DNA of 34,514 nt from Ignavibacteriales bacterium (GTDB lineage Bacteria > Bacteroidota > Ignavibacteria > Ignavibacteriales > Melioribacteraceae), in contig JAGVBL010000103.1 in assembly GCA_020059785.1 (NCBI GenBank), forward strand, positions 1 to 34,514. The letters are read 5' to 3'. Position numbers and translations under genes: made by a program. The notes under the pieces are model-generated. The model was given only the letters and a program-made list of their open reading frames with translations. It was not told the origin of the DNA and did no database searches. Of this stretch, positions 5,630-24,189 are shown one piece after another; the stretch's first letter is position 1; every line of letters starts with the position of its first letter.

Positions 5630-6714
5630 ATGATGAAAATAATAGACCGATACCTCATAAAACAATTTATACAAACAATACTATTCGGGCTTCTTGCATT
5701 CACACTTATATTTGTTGTTATAGACATGATGGAAAACCTCGACGATTTTATTGATCAGAATGTCCCTTCGATGATGATTCTTCAGTATTACCTTGTCTTT
5801 ATGCCGGAAATAATCCGTTTAATTACACCTGTAGCAGTATTACTTGCAAGTTTATTTACAGCGGGAAAAATGTCCTCGCTTAACGAGATAACCGCAATAA
5901 AAGCTGGCGGAATAAGTTTATACCGGTTTATGGCACCTTTATTGTAGTCTCTTTTTTGATAAGTGCAATTAGTGTTTATGTAGGAGGTTACCTTGTTCCA
6001 CTTGCAAACAAGCACAAAGTATTTATTGAACAAACATACATGAAGAAAGGAATTGTTTATTTCGGAAGCAACATTTTTTTTCAGGATACAAAATCGAGAA
6101 TTGTAACAATAAATTATTATGATATTGCAAATAAGCAAGCTCACCAGGTCAGCATTCAGGAATTTAACCCGGTTGATAAAACACGTTTAATAAAAAGAAC
6201 TGATGCATTAAGAATGCGATACGACGAACAAAAAAATTGTTGGACATTGTTTAATGGAACTATAAGAGAAATTTCTGATACTGCCGAGGTGATGGAGAAA
6301 TTTATTGAACATGAATTTTACGGATTGAATTTTAAACCGGATGACGTTATTAAAAAACAAAGGAAACCTGAAGAAATGTCCCTTGCAGAATTATCAGATT
6401 TTGCAAATGAACAGAGAAGAACAGGCAATGATCCAACTTCAATACTGATTGAATATCAGTCCAGAATTGCTTACGCATTTGCGAGTGTTGTAGTAGTATT
6501 CTTTGGATTACCTATTTCGGCAAACAGAAGACGAGGCGGACTTGCAATTCAATTTGGAATTAATCTTTTAATAACGTTCGTCTATCTTGTTTTCATGAAG
6601 GTAAGCCAGGCATTTGGAAAAAATGGTGTACTGGACCCGCTGATAACTGCATGGATAGCCAATCTCGTTTTTTTATTAGCCGCGGCGTATAATATAAAGC
6701 GCGCTCTTAAATAA
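5630..6714 (+). pseudogene. LptG/LptF-family LPS export permease; reading frame broken by a 1-nt deficit near 5936-5947
   Basis: ORFs 5630..5947 (N-terminal part, ...LNEITAIKAGGISLYRFMAPLL*) and 5956..6714 (C-terminal part) together make one ~361-aa permease. The downstream frame is already open from 5884. The span is 1085 nt, which is 2 mod 3. Restoring one T in CCTTTATT gives ...YRFMAPFIVVSFLISAIS... Confidence 0.8.
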
Positions 6715-8946
6715 TTATTTGGTTTTAAATTCAAATACTCCGTCCCAATCATCCGCCGGAGGATTCTGAATATAATACTGACATCTGTTCAAATAAACAT
6801 TAGAAGGGTAATCGCCTAATTTTTCTGAACATCGCTTAAAATAATCCATTGCTGCATCAAAGCTTTTATGTCTGTAAAGTTCTAACCCCTGGAAGTATTC
6901 GTGAATTTTATCAATAGCGTCAATCGCTTTTTTATCATCAATTAAACTAATTAGCTCGTAAACTTTTGTGGGTTCAAGTTTTCCTTTTACACGTATAATA
7001 TCAAGTTCCCTTACAAGAACTTTCTCTTTCACCAATTCGTAAGTTGAACCACTTATCATAATATTGGAGCCATATTCTTTGTTAGCACCTTCAAGACGCG
7101 AAGCAAGATTTACATCATCGCCAAGCACAGTATAATCAAATCGTTTTACACCGCCGATATTACCAACAATTACTTCACCTGAGTTAATTCCAATTCTTAT
7201 ATGAATTACCGGTTCACCAGTCTTTGACCATTTATCCCTTAGCTCGGCAAGTTTATCCTGCATTTGTAAAGCAGTTAAACAAGCTTTGTAAGCATGGTCA
7301 TCAACTTTAACGGGAGCCCCCCAAAATGCCATTACCGCATCGCCAAGATATTTATCGAGAGTACCTCCATTTCTTAAAATAATTTCAGTCATCTCATTCA
7401 GAAATTCGTTAATAAAGCTTACTAATTCCTCCGGTTCTTTTTTCTCTGCAAAAGTTGTAAACCCGGCTATGTCGCTGAACAGAACTGTAAGGGTTTTTTT
7501 CTCGCCGCCTAATTTTAATTTATCGGGATTTGCAAGAAGCTCGTTTACAATTGATTTGCTTACATATTGACTGAACATTCCGGTAATCATAACATTCTGC
7601 TGTCTTTCCTTAATGAAATGATACGCGGTGCTGCTCAAGTAACCAACAACTATTGCCAGTGAAGGACTTACAACTGCAATTACCAGTTTGTTGTTGATAA
7701 ACAGATAAATACTAAGCAAATAAATAACATAAACAATAAACACAACCGCAAGAAGATTGATAATTTCTGTGAGGATCCCGATTCTGATTTTAACTTTTCT
7801 TATTACTGAAGTTGCGATAAAAATAAAAATTGTAAGAAGGATTATTATAAATATTTCCATTTCCTTCGATTGGACGTAGAGGTAATCATTCCATAAAATA
7901 TTTTGAATAATATTTGCATGAAACTCAACGCCGTAAATTTGATTATCTCCTTTTCTTTTTCCTTCAGCAAATGAGATCGGAAGTAAGTCCCGGTCTTCGG
8001 GCATTGTAGAGCCGATTAATACAATTTTATTTTCTAATTTTTTCCTTAACTCCGGATCTGATAAGTATTCTTCCCAAACATTAATTTCGTCTTTATACTC
8101 AATCTCGTCTTTAGTCTTAAACGCTGAATCGTCAATGATATCAAGCATTTTAACATATTCGAACGTTCTGTTAGGTCCATAGAAATTTGTGAGTACTGAT
8201 GTCCTATCAAATTTAGGAATATTTTTATTCCCCAATTTAAAGTAACCATCAACAGATGTAGCTGATTCAAAATTTCGTAATCCTAATACTTTATTTATTA
8301 TGGCAAATCCAAAACTCGGAACTCTTGAATCTGTTATTCCTGTAAATCTAAATGGGATATATCTTCTAAATACATAATCAAAATCGGGCGGCGGCTGAAC
8401 TATTCCAAGAGAGCTATCAACAGTAAAGAAAATATTTTCGTAATTGTAAAATTTCTTCTTGCCTAAAGTATCTGTAACCTCAAAACCGATTTTCTCAATC
8501 AACAGATCACGCGATTCATCTATCTTACCGGCAAGAACAACTTTACCGTAAGATTGTATAGCATCAATAAAGAGAGAGTCGTCTTTGGGTGATGTATCCG
8601 GATTAGACATAATAACATCAATACCAATAGCTCTTACACCAATTTCTTTAAGGTTCTTTATCAATTTTGCATATAAAGATCTTGGTAGCGGCATACGATT
8701 ATATGGCGGTGGAAACTGAGTAAAGGATTCCTGATCAATCTCAATAATTACAACATCCGCTGAATCTTTTATATCAATTTTGCCACGCTCTAAGAAACGA
8801 TTATCAATTAATTTTAATTCGAGCTCCTTCAAAGGAGAAAATGTGAAAAGAAAATCCTGGGTTAAAACAATAGTTAGAATTGAAGCGGCAAGAATAAAAA
8901 TTCCGCTCTTATATAACCAGATTAATTTTCGTTTACCGGAAGACAT
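6715..8946 (-). CDS. CHASE2 sensor domain-containing class III adenylate cyclase
   Basis: 743 aa. It has an N-terminal TM helix, a periplasmic CHASE2-like region (VVIIEIDQESF...LPRSLYAKLIKNL...GIDVIMS), a cluster of TM helices, and a cyclase domain (LFSDIAGFTTF, DKYLGDAVMAFWGAP, DYTVLGDDVNLASRLE). A C-terminal tail ends ...DDWDGVFEFKTK. Confidence 0.85.
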   Translation of the reverse strand: MSSGKRKLIWLYKSGIFILAASILTIVLTQDFLFTFSPLKELELKLIDNRFLERGKIDIKDSADVVIIEIDQESFTQFPPPYNRMPLPRSLYAKLIKNLKEIGVRAIGIDVIMSNPDTSPKDDSLFIDAIQSYGKVVLAGKIDESRDLLIEKIGFEVTDTLGKKKFYNYENIFFTVDSSLGIVQPPPDFDYVFRRYIPFRFTGITDSRVPSFGFAIINKVLGLRNFESATSVDGYFKLGNKNIPKFDRTSVLTNFYGPNRTFEYVKMLDIIDDSAFKTKDEIEYKDEINVWEEYLSDPELRKKLENKIVLIGSTMPEDRDLLPISFAEGKRKGDNQIYGVEFHANIIQNILWNDYLYVQSKEMEIFIIILLTIFIFIATSVIRKVKIRIGILTEIINLLAVVFIVYVIYLLSIYLFINNKLVIAVVSPSLAIVVGYLSSTAYHFIKERQQNVMITGMFSQYVSKSIVNELLANPDKLKLGGEKKTLTVLFSDIAGFTTFAEKKEPEELVSFINEFLNEMTEIILRNGGTLDKYLGDAVMAFWGAPVKVDDHAYKACLTALQMQDKLAELRDKWSKTGEPVIHIRIGINSGEVIVGNIGGVKRFDYTVLGDDVNLASRLEGANKEYGSNIMISGSTYELVKEKVLVRELDIIRVKGKLEPTKVYELISLIDDKKAIDAIDKIHEYFQGLELYRHKSFDAAMDYFKRCSEKLGDYPSNVYLNRCQYYIQNPPADDWDGVFEFKTK

Positions 8947-8962
8947 TATTTTATATCGCAGT

Positions 8963-11346
8963 CTAAAAATTCAATCTCGTTACAAAGCCGATAATCGAGT
9001 TGGTATCTCTGCCGGGTATTTTAAATACTCTTGCCTGAAATGCCAGGTTAAGATTTGCAATTACATTGTAATCGGCAATAAATTCAAATGTCTGTCTCTT
9101 AAAATCGCCGAAGCTCGGACTAAGAGTTGCAGAGAGGTGTAATTTATTATCGAGCAGTCTATATCTTCCTCCAAGACTAAGGGTAAGATAATCAAATGGA
9201 ATGGTTGCAATTTCACTCGAGCTATAAAGAATCTGGAATAAAGATGAGATCTGCGAAGTCCAATAACTATTCAATGTAAATCCGGCAGCATTATATGTAG
9301 CGTCAGAATTAGATAAGCTATTATCCTCCCTATTTTGAGTTGTGAATGACAAAGAAGAAGTATGTTTTACCATTGCAACAAAATCGTATGATAATTGAAG
9401 AATAAATCTGTTGGTAATATCATCAACAACAAAGTTTCTATTAACCGGATCGGTAGTTTTCAATCCGTTTTTATTATCGGATTTATTGAAACCAATTGTA
9501 ATATTAGGAAAATCTGCCCTTGGGAATATTGATAACGAAGCACTTAAAGTGTTGTATTTAGTTGTTGCCGGCTTTGTTTTTTGTAGATTGTCCTCAAGAC
9601 TTTCGTATCCCAAAGAGAGAAAGACTTTGTTATCAAACATCCTGATCCGATCGACTATGTTAATGCCTTTTAAGTCGGTCCTTACATACGATTGACCAAA
9701 AGAAAAATAATCATTACCACGATAAATATAGGAGGCACGCAGATTATTGTTCAGGTAATTAAGACTTAGCGCAGCTTCTCCGGCAATAGAAGCAAATTCC
9801 TGTGGATTTAACGGACCGATATATTGATTAACGGTTATAAATTTTCCGAGAATATCTCTAATTGTTTTAACCTGATCAGGGTCGATATCATATAATCCGT
9901 TTGGACCAAAAATAGAATCGATTTGTGCATCGGTTAAATTTCCAGTTGAGATATCTTTATTGAACATACTAAATGCTACCTGGGTTGTAAAGAGAACATT
10001 TTGCTCATCGAAAGCAATTTTAATATCGCTTCCCAATACAACGTTTTCCTGGGGACGGGAGCCGAATTCAATTGATCCGGTTTTATCTTTAGAGTGTAGA
10101 TATGTAAAACCAAGCTGGAAATTTTCTCCACTTCCAAAAGAAGGACGTAACGCAAAAATATCCCTTTGAAAAGTACCTAAATTAACTTTACCAAACGGCT
10201 TACCGTATTTTGCTGCACTTATTGGAATTATATCACTTCCAAGCGGAACCTGGTCTTTTGTATATGTCTGAAGTAAAGCACCTTCAATTTTCCTGTCGGA
10301 TTCACCCACGGCTGCCGTAACATTAATAAACCCGAGATTTAAAAAACCGCTGAATCCGCGTATCCGCTTTCCATCCATTATTAAACTAGGAAAACGCGGA
10401 TAAGTATCGCCAACTCTTAATTCCAGCCATTCACCGTTTTTAATTGAGCCGAGTAGCGGTTATAAGGTTGCAAATTACTCTTTTCTTCAGAAGTTAAATA
10501 GACATAACCATTAATTCTCCACTGATCGTATGATGCATTAAAATCAGCACTAAGGTTATTATACCAGGTTGAAACAGTATTGTATGTTTCGCTTCGGGAT
10601 TCGGCTCTAAAGTTACCCAGTGATTTCCATCTTGAAATTACCTGTTCTGCAACAGCTGTTGAAACTACCTGAAATGTTTTTGAAATTGTGTGATATAAAT
10701 TTCCGTCTTTATCATAGACCTGAACCTTTAATAGTCTTGATCCGACGGGTAGATTTCCTTCAAAACTCTCTCCGCTTAACACTATAAGTTCATTTGTAAA
10801 TAGCGCTAAACCGGTTACGTCTTCATTGTTCAAGAAAATTTTTGTCTTTTTTATATCAACGTTATCAGGTGCTTTAAAAAATGAAATTGATACAAGTAGA
10901 TTTTCCTGTGAGAGAATTTCACCATCGGAAGGACTTAGAATAATTATTTCCTTATCCTTTTCGCTCGCACCTGAAACAGCAATTTGCAAAGGTGCGTTGC
11001 CCTGTTCAATTCCAAAAGGGTAGGTTTGAGTGTTTCCATTTTTTAATGTAATAAGTAAATAATAGTCGATGTATGGAGGTAGAACATATTCAGCGTCTAT
11101 TTGAGCTGAGGCAGTATTACCCGCTATTAACATTTCTTTATTTCTATATTCATTCTCACCGAATTTTTTGAAGAATAGATTAATTCCAGAAATATTTTCT
11201 GTTGAAAAAAGTGTTGCAGATACGTTAACCGGAATTTTATCTTTAGCATCGCCGATTCTTACAGCAGAAATATAATCGCTTACCTGGGCTTCTATTTTAG
11301 AGACTGAAAAAATTAATAAAAGTGATATAACAATAAACTTTTTCAT
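8963..11346 (-). pseudogene. Large outer-membrane beta-barrel protein of unknown family; frame broken by a 1-nt deficit in the A5 run at 10437-10441
   Basis: ORF 10417..11364 carries a signal peptide (MKKFIVISLLLIFSVSKIEAQ from ATG 11346, with GAGGG upstream). ORF 8963..10378 has alternating beta-strand-like sequence and ends ...GFVTRLNF (terminal Phe). The downstream frame is open back to 10459. Adding one A gives ...NRYSAQLKNGEWLELRVGDTYPRF... The span is 2 mod 3. Confidence 0.7.
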
Positions 11347-11376
11347 CTTGCCCTCTATTTTCAATATTTATTTATT

Positions 11377-12080
11377 TTATTTATCCTGTAAATATTCAAT
11401 CTTTATATCACCATCTTTGGTTCTAATAATCACCTGTTTTGTTGTAGTAGATTTAGATGATTTGAAGCGGGTGGAATCTTCTGCAGTAGAGCTTGAAAGC
11501 GAGTATGAGCCATCTTTTTTAACTTTCAAAGTATTACCGCTGCCAATTGTTCCTTCCTCGCCGCTGAGAGTTTGAAAAGTTGCAGAGCCGGTATTCAAAA
11601 ATATTGTGGAGGTTGTATCAATATCGTTATGCTCAATAAATCCCTCAGTCCCTCTTATGGATGCGACTACTGTTGGTGTGGTAAACTTAAACTCTTCATC
11701 TTCAGCTTGTTTATTAACTTCGAATCCAACCACTCCTTTATCAATAAAAGTATTCTTGCTCATTTTTTATTTTCTGATTTACCATAAATATTGAGGATAG
11801 AGTTTTCTCTTACCCTTAATAAACCGGATCCGTCAATAAAATGAACAAGTGCCAATGAACTGGAACCCGTTTTAACCTGTCCCCCATCACTTAGTATAAG
11901 CCCGACTTTAGCTTTTCCCCAATCTGGTTGATCATGGTTTGCACGGAATGTTACGTCCTTAATTATTTTCTTAACCTGAACAATCGGTGAATCTGAAGAA
12001 GAAGTAATATTTTTCTCGGTAGAAAAACCGGTTAATAAAAAAACACCCAGTACCGTTATAATAAGTTTAGGATTTATCAT
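11377..12080 (-). pseudogene. FecR-domain protein (secreted or membrane-anchored); apparently split by a 1-nt deficit in the A6 run at 11763-11768
   Basis: ORF 11760..12080 has a signal/anchor (MINPKLIITVLGVFLLTGF) and the first half of a FecR-like domain (WGKAKVGLILSDGGQVKTGSSSLALVHFIDGSGLLRVRENSIL). ORF 11377..11763 continues it (GVVGFEVNK...FKFTTPTVVASIRGTEGFI). The junction is AAAAAATGA, the span is 704 nt (2 mod 3), and one extra A fuses them as ...SENKKMSKNTF... The alternative is two genuine ATGA-coupled genes. Confidence 0.6.
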
Positions 12081-12099
12081 TTCAAAACTCCTGTTATTA

Positions 12100-13161
12100 T
12101 CATTTTGGAGAAAATGTTATTGAAATAATTGCACTGTTATCCTTCTCAAGAAAACCGAGTATCTCAATAAAATCTGAAAAGCTTAATACATTTCCCCTTT
12201 CGTCCGTAATCTGAATTTGCTCGGGCTGAATTTCTCCATTCATTAATTTATCTTTAATCTCTTTACTGAATTGCGGCGGCAAAAGATTTACTAATCTTAT
12301 CAAATCAGGATTACCAATTTTTACTGTTGTGTTTTTAGTTCCAGTAGCATTTGTCTTGAACATAACCAGAGGGCTATTTAAGACATTTCCACCGCCCGGA
12401 CCGTGAACAAAAGCTTTGACTACTACAACAATGTTTGTGTCGGCTAATAATTCTCTTTTTAGAATATCATTTAACCTTATTGAAGTAACCGTTCCAACAT
12501 CATAGTCATTAATTAAAGGGTTTCCGGAATTAAGAGCTTCTTCCAGGTTGATAGCATTATCAGACACATAGTTAGCTTTAATTTTATAACTTGTTGCACC
12601 AACCGAAGTAGTCCATTGTAAAATAATTGAACCGATATCGTAGGAACTTCCATCAACAGGAAAATTTATAGAAGGAGCCGTGGGATTTAAGAAAGAAATC
12701 TCTTCATAATCTTTTGAGATAAAATTTCCTCTTGGGTCTAACAATCTTAGTTCGATGCCAACCAGACCAGTTGGTTTACCTTTTTTAATAATATCCGAAG
12801 TAAGATCGGAATTAAAACTTGTGTTTTCAATTTCGATATCGGAATTGTTAATCTCGTCATTTGAGAAGTTTCTTGAAAGAAATTTTTTAGTTCTAAACCG
12901 GAATAATTCCTGGAATCCCGAACGTTCATCTTTTTGCCAGTCAACTTTACCTTCTACCATTACTTCAATACCCGGCGGTGAAATAATAACCTGAATTAAA
13001 CGTTGTGAAATATTTCTGGTGCTAGTAAAATCGAAAGCAGCAAAATCAATTGAACTTAACTCTGGAAAAATTATCAGGTTTATTGAGGCTTGTGCGTTAA
13101 TCCGGTAATTAGAGATTACCAGCAGAACTAGAATTACGGAAAGCTTAAAAATCTTTCGCAT
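12100..13161 (-). CDS. Hypothetical secreted protein, first gene of the FecR/beta-barrel/CHASE2 cluster
   Basis: 353 aa. It has the signal peptide MRKIFKLSVILVLLVISNYRINAQ, with GGAG 7 nt upstream of the ATG. The central segment ...SIILQWTTSVGATSYKIK... resembles an Ig/Fn3-like strand pattern. I recognise no family. Confidence 0.6.
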   Translation of the reverse strand: MRKIFKLSVILVLLVISNYRINAQASINLIIFPELSSIDFAAFDFTSTRNISQRLIQVIISPPGIEVMVEGKVDWQKDERSGFQELFRFRTKKFLSRNFSNDEINNSDIEIENTSFNSDLTSDIIKKGKPTGLVGIELRLLDPRGNFISKDYEEISFLNPTAPSINFPVDGSSYDIGSIILQWTTSVGATSYKIKANYVSDNAINLEEALNSGNPLINDYDVGTVTSIRLNDILKRELLADTNIVVVVKAFVHGPGGGNVLNSPLVMFKTNATGTKNTTVKIGNPDLIRLVNLLPPQFSKEIKDKLMNGEIQPEQIQITDERGNVLSFSDFIEILGFLEKDNSAIISITFSPK

Positions 13162-13273
13162 AATTTATCTCCACATTTACTGTGTCATTATGAATTAGAG
13201 GGATTATTTCGTAAGAAAAGTAGTTATTTATTTCATCTTACTCAAGATAAGTTTTCAAAAGTTAACAGGGGTT

Positions 13274-13315
13274 TGATACAGGATAATTGCAAAAGTAGTT
13301 GGATAAGATACAGGA
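13274..13315. repeat. Two direct copies of GATACAGGA (13274-13282 and 13307-13315), 33 bp apart; possible operator
   Basis: The 9/9 repeat was read directly: ...tttGATACAGGAtaatt...taaGATACAGGAatttt... The copies bracket the candidate -7 box at 13290-13297, in the 250-nt leader region of the cluster. Confidence 0.4.
13290..13297 (-). promoter_or_regulatory. Candidate -7 box TACTTTTG for the four-gene CHASE2 cluster
   Basis: The plus strand reads CAAAAGTA, which is TACTTTTG on the minus strand (a TAnnTTTG match). It lies about 129 nt upstream of ATG 13161. Confidence 0.3.
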
Positions 13316-13412
13316 ATTTTATTAATTAATAGCATACACATAAATTGCCCTATAATTAAAGGAGCAATTTATTTTTTATATTAGAATTAAATAAATCCTT
13401 TGAAGCAGAAGA

Positions 13413-13739
13413 CTAATTAATCGGTTCCGGTTTCTGTGCGTTTACAAATCCGAATTGATGAGCCGGCTGAGCATCAATCTTAATTTCGCCAAATCTCGAT
13501 TCAAACTTTTCAATGTTCTCTTTAAGTGCTCTCAGCAACATTTTTGCATGTTGAGGAGTTGTAATAATACGAGAAAGAACCCGAGCTTTTGGAACACCCG
13601 GAACTACGCGTGTAAAATCGATTACAAATTCTGCTGGAGAATGCGTTATTATTGCAAGATTCGAATAGATTCCTTCAGCTTCTTTCTCACCCAATTCTAT
13701 ATTAATCTGCTGCTGCATCTGTTCTTTATTCTGATTCAT
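13413..13739 (-). CDS. DUF3467 domain-containing protein
   Basis: 108 aa. The pattern ...INIELGEKEAEGIYSNLAIITHSPAEFVIDFTRV...RIITTPQHAKMLLRALKENIEKFESRFGEI matches the DUF3467 family as I remember it. Confidence 0.7.
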   Translation of the reverse strand: MNQNKEQMQQQINIELGEKEAEGIYSNLAIITHSPAEFVIDFTRVVPGVPKARVLSRIITTPQHAKMLLRALKENIEKFESRFGEIKIDAQPAHQFGFVNAQKPEPIN

Positions 13740-13769: not shown

Positions 13770-13810
13770 AAAAAAACAACCCACGACCTTTTTGTAAAAG
13801 ACCGTGGGTT
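13770..13810 (-). terminator. Rho-independent terminator downstream of the TPR lipoprotein gene
   Basis: Arms AACCCACG..CTTTT (13778-13792) and AAAAG..CGTGGGTT (13796-13810) form 8 bp plus 5 bp with a 2x2 internal mismatch and a 3-nt loop. A T7 tract follows on the minus strand (A-run 13770-13776). Confidence 0.7.
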
Positions 13811-13832: not shown

Positions 13833-14996
13833 TTACTTTCTTAGCAGATCCGCTTTTTCAAAAGCTTCTTTTGATTTTTGAGTCATACCAAGATTAGCAT
13901 ATATTTTACCAAGTAGTTCCCAAATAACAGCTTCCTGAGGATTTTTCTCAAGGTACTTTTCCATTAAAGGAATAGCAGATCTAAATTTTTCTTGATAAGA
14001 TAAATCTTCTTTGCCTTCAGCCTCAGATTTTTCTCTCATTTCAGTGCCCCATCTAACGTAGACAACTCCAAGATTATAGGTAGCATTAATATATTCCGGA
14101 TCAATTTCAATAGCCCGTCTAAATTCAGTTTCAGCTTCAGCATATCTACTTGCATTCAATAAAAGAACACCGTAATTGTAATGATAGTACTGATTATTCG
14201 GTTCTCTTTCAATTCCTTCTTTAAAAGCAACCATTGCTACATCAAGTTTATTTGCAGCAATGTATGCGTTAGAAAGTCTTAATAATATCTCTCCGTCATC
14301 AGGAAATTTTGCTTTCCCTTTCTCAAGAATGCTAATAGCTTTATCGAACCATTCATTAGCTTTAACACTATCGGCTTTATCCTTACTTTCTTTGAATTTA
14401 TCCATAAGAACATTTCCATTCTCGGTATAAATTTGCCCAATCATAGAAAAAGCTTCTGGAGTTTTACCGATATTAGCTAATTGTTCAAGCGGTTTAATAG
14501 CTTCGTCTATTTTATTTTGATTCAGATATGCATAAGCTAAATTCTGATAGGAAATTGTAGAGTCCGGTTCACATGCAATAGCGTTCTTAAATTGTTCTTC
14601 GGCTTTGGCAAAGAATTGTTTTACACTATCTTCCGAAGTGGACTTAGTAGCATTATTAAAATATACTACACCTTTATTAAAACTTGTTGCCCAATAATAT
14701 TGTCTTGAGTCTTTAATTTGAGGTTCATATTTCTTGCTTGCCTTCAAAGAATTATTGAAAGCGTCTAACATTTGAGGAAAATTTCCTTCCTCTCCATAAA
14801 TTACACCAAGTAAATACCATCCTTCGTCACTTGCCGGGTTCTTTTGAACCTCTTTTAGCAAAGATTCTTTTGCTTTATCATATTGTTTCTGGTTTATGTA
14901 CAATTTTGCACCGGTTAATTCTGCAGATGTACACTGAAATGCAGTTATACCTAAAACCATACTCAATATGCTCAAATAAATGAGTCCTTTTTTCAT
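13833..14996 (-). CDS. TPR-repeat lipoprotein
   Basis: The ORF was trimmed to ATG 14996 (AGGAG 6 nt upstream), giving MKKGLIYLSILSMVLGITAFQC, a lipoprotein signal. The rest consists of repeated 34-aa TPR-like units (e.g. AEAETEFRRAIEIDPEYINATYNLGVVY). Confidence 0.75.
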   Translation of the reverse strand: MKKGLIYLSILSMVLGITAFQCTSAELTGAKLYINQKQYDKAKESLLKEVQKNPASDEGWYLLGVIYGEEGNFPQMLDAFNNSLKASKKYEPQIKDSRQYYWATSFNKGVVYFNNATKSTSEDSVKQFFAKAEEQFKNAIACEPDSTISYQNLAYAYLNQNKIDEAIKPLEQLANIGKTPEAFSMIGQIYTENGNVLMDKFKESKDKADSVKANEWFDKAISILEKGKAKFPDDGEILLRLSNAYIAANKLDVAMVAFKEGIEREPNNQYYHYNYGVLLLNASRYAEAETEFRRAIEIDPEYINATYNLGVVYVRWGTEMREKSEAEGKEDLSYQEKFRSAIPLMEKYLEKNPQEAVIWELLGKIYANLGMTQKSKEAFEKADLLRK

Positions 14997-15150
14997 TGAT
15001 ACTCCTGATTTTAATATAAATTCTGAATTAAATTCCACGAAAAATAACCATTTTAAGATAGGTAAGTCAAGATTATTTTCTAGCCTCATTATTCTAAAAA
15101 TCGAATGAACTGATAATTATGTTTAAATTGATTTTCGGACACTAAAAGAA

Positions 15151-19599: not shown

Positions 19600-19630
19600 A
19601 AAGACCTCCTGTTAATTACGGGGGGTCTTT
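19600..19630. terminator. Hairpin between convergent genes (possible bidirectional terminator)
   Basis: AAAGACCTCC (19600-19609) pairs with GGGGGTCTTT (19621-19630), giving 10 bp including one G.U. The U-tails are weak on both strands. The stem overlaps the stop codon of the minus-strand gene. Confidence 0.45.
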
Positions 19631-20390
19631 AAATAAATTTTATTTCGAAAATATCATCCAGAATTCCATGGTAATAGACCAGTTTGACCATTTCATTTAG
19701 AGCTTCTTTTTCGTTCGAAGTCATTTCAAAATAAACCGATCCTAAATTTTCCTTAACATAAAGTTTTATTTCCTCTGTAGTATTTATTCCATCAAGAATA
19801 ACATCAATATTTTCCTCAAAAAAAGTATCGATATCAAGCAGTGTAGTTTCAAGTTTAGCAAGAGCTTCTCTGCTGCTGGATACAAAAATAAAATTTACAT
19901 ATGGAAAATCGAGTAATTCTGCCAGTTGATCTGAGAAACTGATACTGGAATTATAATCCCAAAGAGAAAAATTTTCGTCACCTACAACAAGAGTATTCTG
20001 ACTTCCATCCGGCACTTTGTGAGTATCTAGGACAATCTCAACTTCGGAAGAGAATCTTTCTTCAAATAATATTTTGGTTAGAATTATTTCGTTTAAAGAT
20101 ACATCTCCTCTTAAGAGAATTTTCCCAAGAGTTCTTTCTTCGTTTTCAGTTAAATAGAAGTAAGAATTTGAAAGTGTGCCATCGAAAGAGATGCCAGACT
20201 TTCCGGAAACAAATAATTCCCTGTGGTTAATCAAATCCAAACTTGGAATTAATGCAACCGCTTCTCTATCGTTTTCAAGTTCTTTGGATAAAAGAGACGA
20301 ATCTTTAAGAATAATTTCATGTTGATTATTCTTTTCAAGAAATGATATCAGAATCTTTGAATAAATATTGGATGGCATAAATAATTTCAT
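19629..20390 (-). CDS. Hypothetical protein
   Basis: The ORF was trimmed from the TTG at 20408 to ATG 20390 (GGAG 5 nt upstream). It has 253 aa, is acidic and has no TM helix. Any likeness to MqnA-type binding-fold proteins is too weak to call. Confidence 0.55.
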   Translation of the reverse strand: MKLFMPSNIYSKILISFLEKNNQHEIILKDSSLLSKELENDREAVALIPSLDLINHRELFVSGKSGISFDGTLSNSYFYLTENEERTLGKILLRGDVSLNEIILTKILFEERFSSEVEIVLDTHKVPDGSQNTLVVGDENFSLWDYNSSISFSDQLAELLDFPYVNFIFVSSSREALAKLETTLLDIDTFFEENIDVILDGINTTEEIKLYVKENLGSVYFEMTSNEKEALNEMVKLVYYHGILDDIFEIKFI

Positions 20391-20404
20391 AAAATCTCCG
20401 TATT

Positions 20405-20437
20405 TCAAAAATAAAAAACCCCGAGTAACCGGGGTTT
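20405..20437 (-). terminator. Rho-independent terminator after rplS
   Basis: AAACCCCG (20416-20423) pairs with CGGGGTTT (20430-20437) across a 6-nt loop. On the minus strand the stem is followed by TTTATTTTTGA. Confidence 0.8.
20406..20413 (-). promoter_or_regulatory. Candidate -7 box TATTTTTG embedded in the terminator T-tail
   Basis: The plus strand reads CAAAAATA, which is TATTTTTG on the minus strand. It ends 15 nt upstream of ATG 20390. Confidence 0.3.
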
Positions 20438-22797: not shown

Positions 22798-24131
22798 TTA
22801 ATTATATCTAAAATTTTTCAGATTCATCATGCCGGATTTACCGGATTTTGAACTAACCATTTTAACCATTCGCTGCATCTCTTCAAATTGCTTTATCAGC
22901 CGGTTAACATCCTGAATAGTGTTACCGCTTCCACGAGCAATTCTTTTACGTCTGCTTCCGTTTAATATTTTTGGATTAATCCTTTCCTTTTTGGTCATAG
23001 ACTGAATTATAGATTCAACCTTTACCAACTGCTTATCATCAATATCGGCATTTTTAATTGCAGAACCAAGTCCGGGCACCATGGCAAGCAATGATTTTAA
23101 AGAACCCATTTTCTTAATCATTTTAATTTGCTTAAGAAAATCATCAAAATCGAATTTGTTTGCAAGTAATTTTTTCTCTAAGTCATCAGCTTCTTTTTCA
23201 TCAATCTGTTCCTGAGCTTTTTCAACAAGCGAAACAATATCACCTTTACCTAAAATTCTAGAAGCCATACGTTCCGGATAAAAAAGCTCTATCGAATCTA
23301 ATTTTTCTCCAAGACTTGTAAACTTAACCGGGCGATCTACAACAGCACGGATTGAAAGCACACATCCGCCTCTTGAATCGCCATCGAGCTTTGTAATTAC
23401 AACTCCATCGAAATCAACTTTTTCATGGAAAGCTTTAGCCGAATTTACAGCATCCTGTCCGGTCATGGAATCTACAACAAACAAAGTTTCAGTAGGATTG
23501 ACCTTTGCTTTAATAGCGGCAGCTTCATTCATCATATCTTCATCAACATGCAGACGACCGGCTGTATCTATAATTACCGTATTCAAGCCGTTTTCTTTAG
23601 CATAAATCATTGCTTCGGAAGCAATCTTTACCGGATCTTTACTGCCATCCATAGTGAATACAGGAACAGAAATTTGAGAGCCCAGAATTTTCAACTGATC
23701 GATTGCAGCAGGTCGGTAAACATCAGCAGCAACTAAAAGAACATTTCTTTTTCTGTTTTTTAAGTACTTAGCTAATTTGGCACTGAAAGTAGTCTTACCG
23801 CAACCCTGTAATCCTATCAACATTATGGAAGTAATTCCTGAAGGATTAAGAGTAAGTTCGGAACCGGTACTTCCGAGAAGCAGAGTTAATTCATCATAAA
23901 TAATTTTAGTAATTAACTGTCCCGGAGTAACGGAATTGATAACTTCCTGACCAATAGCTTTTTGTTTAACATCTTCAATGAACTGTTTGGCAACTTTATA
24001 ATTTACATCAGCATCTAAAAGAACACGTCTGATTTCCCGTAGAGTATCCGAAATATTAGATTCGGAGATTCTCCCCTGACCAGTAATTTTTTTAACGCAC
24101 GTTCAAGCTTTTCAGATAATTCTTCGAGCAT
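22798..24131 (-). pseudogene. ffh: Signal recognition particle protein Ffh; frame broken by a 1-nt deficit in the A7 run at 24087-24093 (probably a sequence artefact)
   Basis: ORF 22798..23823 begins inside the G domain (LIGLQGCGKTT) and carries the M domain. The N domain lies upstream. ATG 24131 gives MLEELSEKLERALKK, and with one added A it continues ITGQGRISESNISDTLREIRRVLLDADVNYKVAKQFIEDVK... in frame with the G domain. The span is 1334 nt, which is 2 mod 3. Confidence 0.9.
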
Positions 24132-24189
24132 AGTCTATCAACTCAGTTAAAAGATAATAAAAAGGGAATTCATTTCAAAAGTTAATTAT

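Follow-up and report, generated by a model that had tools for sequence, protein, structure and literature searches.

We describe a cluster of four genes in the genome of an Ignavibacteriales bacterium of the family Melioribacteraceae, found on contig JAGVBL010000103.1 of GenBank assembly GCA_020059785.1. The whole stretch of DNA that was analysed, 34,514 nucleotides (nt) long (positions 1 to 34,514 of the contig), is called the window in the following. The cluster (positions 6715-13161, minus strand) encodes, in this order, a secreted protein with fibronectin type III (FN3)-like domains (g1), a FecR-domain protein, a large outer-membrane beta-barrel protein, and a class III adenylate cyclase with a CHASE2 sensor domain. 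The coupling of these four genes in one functional module is well supported, and on balance we favor, with modest confidence, the reading that the operon is a trans-envelope sensory module, which would convert an outer-membrane or surface event to cyclic AMP (cAMP) and which resembles the NsrA-CyaK system of Sinorhizobium meliloti. The genes are as follows, with two lengths given after the repair of frame breaks that are discussed with the alternative explanations.

12100-13161, minus strand: g1, 353 amino acids, secreted, two FN3/immunoglobulin (Ig)-like domains, no known family
11377-12080, minus strand: FecR-domain protein, 234 amino acids after frame repair, Pfam FecR, periplasmic
8963-11346, minus strand: outer-membrane barrel protein, 794 amino acids after frame repair, predicted from a structural model
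6715-8946, minus strand: CHASE2 and class III adenylate cyclase, 743 amino acids, inner membrane, from Pfam and a transmembrane scan

Calls of open reading frames (ORFs) give intergenic gaps of 19 nt (g1/FecR), 30 nt (FecR/barrel), and 16 nt (barrel/cyclase), and thus agree with an earlier interpretation of this DNA made before any database search (hereafter the sequence-only reading).

Conservation of gene order

The same four genes in the same order, with ends overlapping or abutting, are present in Melioribacter roseus P3M-2 (CP003557) and on two other ignavibacterial contigs. Since the whole 18-kb neighborhood is syntenic within Ignavibacteria, synteny in this class alone says little. A distant clade of the barrel protein (25-28% identity to the window protein) was therefore the basis of a wider comparison: it was scanned against one genome per GTDB species, and 63 loci were obtained from KSB1/Zhuqueibacterota, Calditrichota, Neomarinimicrobiota, variously labelled metagenome-assembled genomes (MAGs) of the Fibrobacterota-Chlorobiota-Bacteroidota (FCB) group, and one Spirochaetota chromosome. 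ORFs of these loci were searched with hidden Markov models built from the window proteins and their relatives, and gene orders were counted in evaluable loci, i.e., those in which the contig permits the count.

In nearly all such loci, the order g1-FecR-barrel-CHASE2 cyclase is kept on a single strand. The FecR gene is immediately upstream of the barrel gene in every evaluable locus (57/57), the cyclase gene is immediately downstream of it in 51 of 55, g1 is upstream of the FecR gene in 48 of 52, and all four genes occur together in 39 of 45. Median gaps across the loci are 15, 17, and 45 nt, and a Pfam search on a sample of the loci confirmed FecR as well as CHASE2 and Guanylate_cyc. The commonest flanking gene family occurs in at most 13 of 66 loci. 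This is strong evidence that the four genes work together, because the set travels together while its flanks change. Gene-neighborhood conservation, the check proposed with the sequence-only reading, thus holds well past related genomes.

A few loci depart from the common arrangement. In the Spirochaetota locus, the barrel is shorter and g1 cannot be recognised. Three marinimicrobial loci (L058, L059, and L062, from Neomarinimicrobiota or FCB MAGs) carry g1-FecR-barrel without an adjacent cyclase gene; in two of them, L058 and L059, the trio is followed within 1.2-2.6 kb by genes for a metallo-beta-lactamase-fold protein and a GAF-HD (HD_5) protein. In a KSB1-like locus, L007, a second pair of genes (7431-10856) lies 500 nt downstream of the module and encodes a FecR-domain protein of 332 amino acids with DUF7354, followed by a CHASE2-Ser/Thr protein kinase of 807 amino acids.

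Properties of the four products

No Pfam or NCBIfam match was obtained for g1. Its AlphaFold2 model (predicted local distance difference test score, pLDDT, 78.4) shows a signal peptide followed by two beta-sandwiches of the FN3/Ig type, and its C-terminus forms a small helical domain; the best Foldseek matches are tandem FN3 domains (E ~3e-5), with weak matches to Saf pilus subunits. A signal peptide or anchor had been assigned by the sequence-only reading to each of the first three products. For the FecR and barrel proteins, this was supported by a scan for hydrophobic segments; for g1, the scan found no N-terminal segment, and the signal peptide is proposed from the sequence MRKIFKLSVILVLLVISNYRINAQ and the modelled N-terminal helix (residues 2-19). 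A paralogous relation between g1 and the N-terminal domains of the barrel protein was considered and rejected, since an hhalign probability of 5% gives no evidence for it.

The 234-residue FecR-domain protein matches Pfam FecR (E 1.3e-8), with the domain starting at residue 68, and a C-terminal strand pair besides this domain is conserved in the family. Its sole hydrophobic segment, at residues 1-19, is the signal peptide, and neither a lipobox nor a cytoplasmic anti-sigma domain was found in the protein. The NCBIfam search gave only weak similarity to the Leptospira FecR-domain proteins LipL45 and Lsa33, and a PDB sequence search returned nothing. In the FecR proteins of loci L006, L016, L024, L058, and L067, sub-threshold Pfam matches to DUF7354 cover residues ~21-103. 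Such matches of this region, which sits N-terminal to the FecR domain and overlaps it, are seen in most non-ignavibacterial members, and for the window protein the match is not reported.

The barrel protein, which had been expected to be about 795 amino acids long with the C-terminus ...RLNF, has 794 amino acids after repair and ends in ...TRLNF. Its AlphaFold2 model (pLDDT 83.5), for which the relative P0001 (96% identity) and 36 homologues were used, consists of a signal peptide, a pair of Ig-like domains (~26-228), and a barrel of ~26 strands (~241-794). The C-terminal residue is Phe in the window protein and Phe or Tyr in 48 of 55 family members. With a signal peptide, a modelled barrel, and a C-terminal aromatic residue, the protein is predicted to be an outer-membrane barrel in the generic sense. 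Foldseek gives probability 1.0 to many outer-membrane barrels, of which MtrB is the best (E 2.8e-10, TM-scores 0.42/0.51), followed by PapC/FimD ushers and TonB-dependent transporters. These matches have 8-11% identity and TM-scores of 0.26-0.51, so that, as judged from the model, the protein shows only generic structural similarity to large outer-membrane barrels.

Neither the barrel protein nor any of 56 diverse relatives has a Pfam or NCBIfam family. The protein has no plug and no TonB box, there is no Plug, TonB_dep_Rec, or STN match even at E 0.1, and none was found in the 57-member barrel set. A search of PDB with the barrel sequence profile returned noise only (E 0.06, an Ig-like domain of peptidylarginine deiminase). 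An ordinary porin or TonB-dependent transporter, an outcome that would have counted against the sequence-only reading, was thus rejected from the lack of a family match and of a plug together with a fold similarity that is only generic.

With 1466 clusters (50% identity) at E <= 1e-3, of which 499 reach E <= 1e-30, the barrel family is large. The best 120 homologues are all from Ignavibacteriales/Melioribacteraceae and of full length (787-816 amino acids). The most conserved motifs across phyla, QPxNRY and GDxYP...GxRVRG, are found around residues 293-331 and form loops on the outer or lumenal side of the modelled barrel, when a periplasmic N-terminus is assumed. Because these conserved loops are unlike the variable loops of porins, they would fit a functional site in the barrel.

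Pfam matches of the cyclase are CHASE2 (9.5e-44, residues 32-374) and Guanylate_cyc (1.1e-31, residues 483-660); the FecR domain and the fusion of CHASE2 to a class III cyclase, both named in the sequence-only reading, were therefore borne out. Transmembrane (TM) segments were detected at residues 9-27, 364-382, 399-417, and 421-439. The predicted layout is one TM segment, a periplasmic CHASE2 domain, three TM segments, a cytoplasmic cyclase domain, and a C-terminal tail, with the side of the membrane for each domain taken from the positions of the TM segments. The catalytic motifs FSDIAGFT, KYLGDAVM, and YTVLGDDVNLASR are present, and we take them, by motif, to hold the two Asp residues that bind metal, the Lys/Thr pair for the substrate, and the transition-state Asn and Arg. 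A Lys/Thr pair is typical of class IIIb adenylate cyclases. The residues for catalysis on ATP thus appear intact by motif, and a class IIIb adenylate cyclase is predicted. The nearest solved catalytic domains are those of Pseudomonas aeruginosa CyaB (3r5g) and cyanobacterial cyclases; in the PDB search, no solved structure covers the CHASE2 part.

Leader and transcription

The leader 5' of g1 (13162-13412) is 251 nt long, in accordance with the approximately 250 nt first estimated. A candidate promoter and paired repeats had been proposed there, and the two proposals fared differently. Matches to sigma-70-type promoters occur at chance level (31 found vs 28.2 expected). The 9-nt repeat TCCTGTATC is indeed present twice (13275-13283 and 13307-13315), although in the leader alignment it is not conserved past the closest relative. 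A different block is conserved:

13215-13245, minus strand: promoter-like block TTGAG-N18-TACTTTTC, ~54 nt upstream of the g1 start

In the leader alignment this block is kept in the window, L068, M. roseus, and L003, and the TTGAG and TAC.TT columns are invariant. The consensus of the Bacteroidetes-type -33/-7 promoter is TTTG ... TAnnTTTG. The block resembles a promoter of this type and may function as one. No terminator-like site was found in the three gaps by a terminator scan, and no part of the window, the leader included, matched an Rfam family. Co-transcription of the four genes is consistent with these data, because the gaps are short, they hold no terminator, and the conserved promoter-like block is present only upstream of g1.

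Comparison with known systems

The closest counterpart is the NsrA-CyaK cAMP cascade of S. meliloti, to which CyaD1, CyaD2, and Clr also belong. There, NsrA mediates the perception of an external, proteinaceous plant signal, uL2, by CHASE2 cyclases and is needed for their activation (PMC13001267). On pSymB, nsrA (1200 amino acids) overlaps the start of cyaK, and its product consists of a FecR domain (66-160), tetratricopeptide (TPR) repeats (~230-590), and a C-terminal barrel. As in the window, a FecR domain and an outer-membrane barrel are encoded directly upstream of a CHASE2 class III cyclase. Because NsrA with its FecR domain is needed to activate the S. meliloti CHASE2 cyclases, a relay starting at the outer membrane is supported by analogy for the window operon. 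The view in the sequence-only reading that no characterised system has such an architecture must therefore be given up: NsrA-CyaK is one, and clusters of FecR and CHASE2 have also been published (PMC9239204, PMC5192318).

There are clear differences between the two systems. NsrA is one FecR-TPR-barrel fusion, whereas in the window the FecR and barrel proteins are encoded by separate genes and none of the four proteins has TPR repeats. The window barrel, with its two Ig-like domains at the N-terminus, is a member of a family that lacks annotation, whereas the NsrA barrel is of the TonB-receptor type: its relatives carry PF00593 and are annotated as TonB-dependent receptors, unlike the window family, in which PF00593 was found in 0 of 57 barrels. 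The window module has, in addition, the FN3-like gene g1. The barrel was rejected as an orthologue of NsrA, since hhalign gave no match between single sequences and a probability of 0.15% between profiles.

Other contigs, too, have NsrA-like genes, fused or split, upstream of CHASE2 cyclases. A split NsrA-like module in L072 (4046-9665) encodes a FecR protein of 313 amino acids and a TPR-barrel protein of 897 amino acids, followed by a cyclase remnant of 169 amino acids, and forms a natural link between the fused NsrA protein and the separate genes seen in the window. In S. meliloti and related contigs, a PycTM-type gene (PF18967, Pycsar effector-like, annotated as DUF5706) is located divergently and directly upstream of nsrA-cyaK (L004, 2543-3088; L069/L070, 4316-4867; L071, 237-788). 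Its product would be a membrane effector of the cyclic-nucleotide-activated type, encoded here beside a CHASE2 cyclase.

Two further published arrangements share parts of the module. In Campylobacterota, a cluster comprises genes for a CHASE2 cyclase, a phosphodiesterase, an outer-membrane protein with a FecR domain, and a TPR protein, and has been proposed from comparative genomics to form one pathway (PMC9239204). The CHASE2 cyclase and the FecR-domain outer-membrane protein are common to both, whereas that cluster, by its published description, has the phosphodiesterase and TPR proteins and the window module has g1 and no phosphodiesterase. The 'BiofilmReg' operon of Burkholderia encodes a response regulator, a LysM-FecR protein, a CHASE2 histidine kinase, and a DUF4136 protein (PMC5192318). 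It resembles the window operon in that a secreted FecR-domain protein is encoded beside a CHASE2 sensor, and differs from it in the histidine kinase output, the LysM domain on the FecR protein, and the lack of an outer-membrane barrel. FecR-CHASE2 pairing seems to be independent of the output domain, because FecR is paired with CHASE2 in this Burkholderia kinase as well as in the Ser/Thr kinase pair of L007.

The literature thus already contains both the pairing of FecR with CHASE2 and the idea that a CHASE2 cyclase receives its input from the outer membrane. As far as a limited literature search goes, what is new here is the unannotated barrel without detectable homology to that of NsrA, the separate soluble FecR protein, the conserved FN3-like fourth protein, and the wide phylogenetic distribution of the set.

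Proposed mechanism and alternative explanations

In the mechanism that we favor, the barrel would span the outer membrane and extend its pair of Ig-like domains into the periplasm, where the FecR-domain protein, and probably also the FN3-like g1, would associate with it. The FecR-domain protein would touch the periplasmic CHASE2 domain of the inner-membrane cyclase and so bridge the barrel and CHASE2, and an event at the outer membrane or the cell surface would change cAMP synthesis in the cytoplasm. Our best guess for the trigger, made by analogy, is that a macromolecule binds. A path from the outer membrane through FecR to the CHASE2 cyclase was the central idea of the sequence-only reading, and its functional part, the coupling of the genes, is now supported by synteny and by the analogy with NsrA.

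Several points weigh against this mechanism. Which proteins touch each other, which way the signal travels, and what it consists of are all inferred. The trio of g1, FecR, and barrel can exist without a cyclase output, as the three marinimicrobial loci show. Since the barrel has no detectable homology to NsrA, the analogy rests on architecture, not on descent. The stand-alone FecR-domain protein SMc02177 of S. meliloti, whose locus tag directly follows cyaD1 (SMc02176), is dispensable for perception of the shoot signal (PMC5498481). Finally, two of the four genes, those for the FecR and barrel proteins, are frame-broken in the window.

The main rival explanation, which we regard as unlikely and yet as the best of the alternatives, is that g1, the FecR protein, and the barrel make up a complex for export or surface display at the outer membrane, and that the cyclase only monitors or regulates this complex without any external signal. 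The large barrel would then sheathe or translocate beta-sandwich proteins, like MtrB with MtrA or ushers with pilins, and the cyclase would serve as a sensor of envelope status or feedback. MtrB and the PapC/FimD ushers, which gave the highest-ranking structural matches to the barrel, point in this direction; in structure they share with it the very large barrel and the accessory beta-sandwich domains. So do the tandem Ig/FN3-like domains of g1 with their weak matches to Saf pilus subunits, the cyclase-less trio in Marinimicrobia, and the nearest named FecR relatives, which are by annotation the Leptospira lipoprotein LipL45 and the surface adhesins Lsa33 and Lsa19. However, the TM-scores of the barrel matches are low (0.26-0.51) at 8-11% identity, there is no Usher or MtrB_PioB Pfam match, and no cytochrome, chaperone, or pilin genes are found nearby; on these grounds, membership of the barrel in the MtrB/PioB or chaperone-usher families was rejected. 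Moreover, the cyclase is adjacent to the barrel in 51 of the 55 loci, which argues for the sensory module.

The frame breaks raise a second alternative, namely that the module of this organism is a decaying pseudogene cluster with genuine frameshifts in two of its four genes. The FecR gene is split into two ORFs at 11760-11763 and the barrel gene at 10378-10417. Insertion of one A in an A6 run (about 11763-11768) restores the FecR protein of 234 amino acids, and insertion of one A in an A5 run (10437-10441) restores the barrel protein of 794 amino acids. We consider decay improbable, since each break corresponds to a one-base deletion in a poly-A run, the 90%-identical relative L068 is intact, and the repaired proteins can be aligned over their full length with homologues and show no further damage. 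The next gene, lptG (5630-6714), is also broken into two frames near 5938-5956, and the ffh ORF (22798-24189) starts within the GTPase domain, lacks the N domain, and looks truncated at its N-terminus. lptG is normally essential. Homopolymer errors of assembly are the most likely cause of the breaks in the FecR and barrel genes, and locus decay is less likely, because lptG is broken too, the L068 contig (90% DNA identity) has A7 and A6 at the same two sites, and M. roseus proteins align through both. Taken together, lptG, ffh, and the two poly-A deletions suggest frequent single-base indel errors in this assembly.

That the four genes are neighbors by descent only and do not work together could be argued from the syntenic 18-kb neighborhood within Ignavibacteria, but we hold this to be very improbable, since in other phyla the flanks differ while the four genes keep their order with gaps of tens of nt.

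Classical FecA-FecR-FecI signalling or TonB-dependent uptake, suggested by the presence of a FecR domain, can be dismissed: the FecR protein (234 amino acids) has a signal peptide and no anti-sigma part, no gene for an extracytoplasmic function (ECF) sigma factor is found in the window neighborhood, and the barrel has no Plug, STN, or TonB_dep_Rec match, so that the feature tests contradict it. Consistently, neither the scanned ORFs of the window nor the precomputed annotation of the syntenic loci contained a sigma-70 r2/r4 family. What the window operon shares with the Fec system is a periplasmic FecR domain beside an outer-membrane barrel and the concept of trans-envelope signalling, whereas it differs in having no ECF sigma factor, no anti-sigma domain, and no transducer with a plug and signalling domain, and in its output, which is predicted to be cAMP.

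Other features of the window

Upstream of the leader, the following neighbors are found on the same strand.

13413-13739, minus strand: DUF3467 gene, upstream neighbor, assigned by Pfam, probably outside the core module
13778-13810, minus strand: strong hairpin resembling a terminator (stem of 15 bp, then a T run), separates the DUF3467 and TPR genes
13833-15089, minus strand: TPR protein gene, upstream neighbor, assigned by Pfam, probably outside the core module

The DUF3467 and TPR genes were considered as members of the module and rejected outside Ignavibacteria, since they are linked to it only within this class and are absent from the loci of other phyla. The TPR gene is of note in that NsrA, too, has TPR repeats. 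The hairpin suggests that the TPR gene is transcribed apart from the genes downstream. The remaining genes of the window have housekeeping functions: trmD-rimM-rpsP-ffh, the ATP synthase operon, bactofilin, an M23 peptidase, and synthesis of the lipopolysaccharide core and lipid A. An ORF of 259 amino acids (19629-20408, minus strand), located between a 2-hydroxyacid dehydrogenase gene and trmD, has no Pfam family.

Biological significance

To our knowledge, the way in which CHASE2 becomes activated has been unclear ever since this domain was first defined. NsrA with CyaK, CyaD1, and CyaD2 is one genetically studied case, and it is tied to a symbiosis-specific signal. The operon described here is compact and conserved, its FecR protein, barrel, and cyclase are separate proteins, and it is present in M. 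roseus (CP003557). Because of this separation, the strong conservation, and the presence in M. roseus, the relay from FecR to CHASE2 is directly testable, and the operon offers a clean and separable model for the activation of CHASE2 sensors.

We also put forward, tentatively and as a possibility that we hold for somewhat doubtful, a more general view. CHASE2 may generally be a receiver for secreted FecR-domain partners rather than a sensor of small ligands. The operon would then be a widespread, hitherto undescribed trans-envelope machine of FCB bacteria, which couples surface events to cAMP by means of a new family of ~26-strand barrels, perhaps occupied or threaded by an FN3-like or FecR-like protein, and which would have originated independently of the NsrA-type barrel. 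The module also suggests a likely role for two protein families that lack annotation; the barrel family, with about 1,466 clusters at 50% identity in public data, is one of them.

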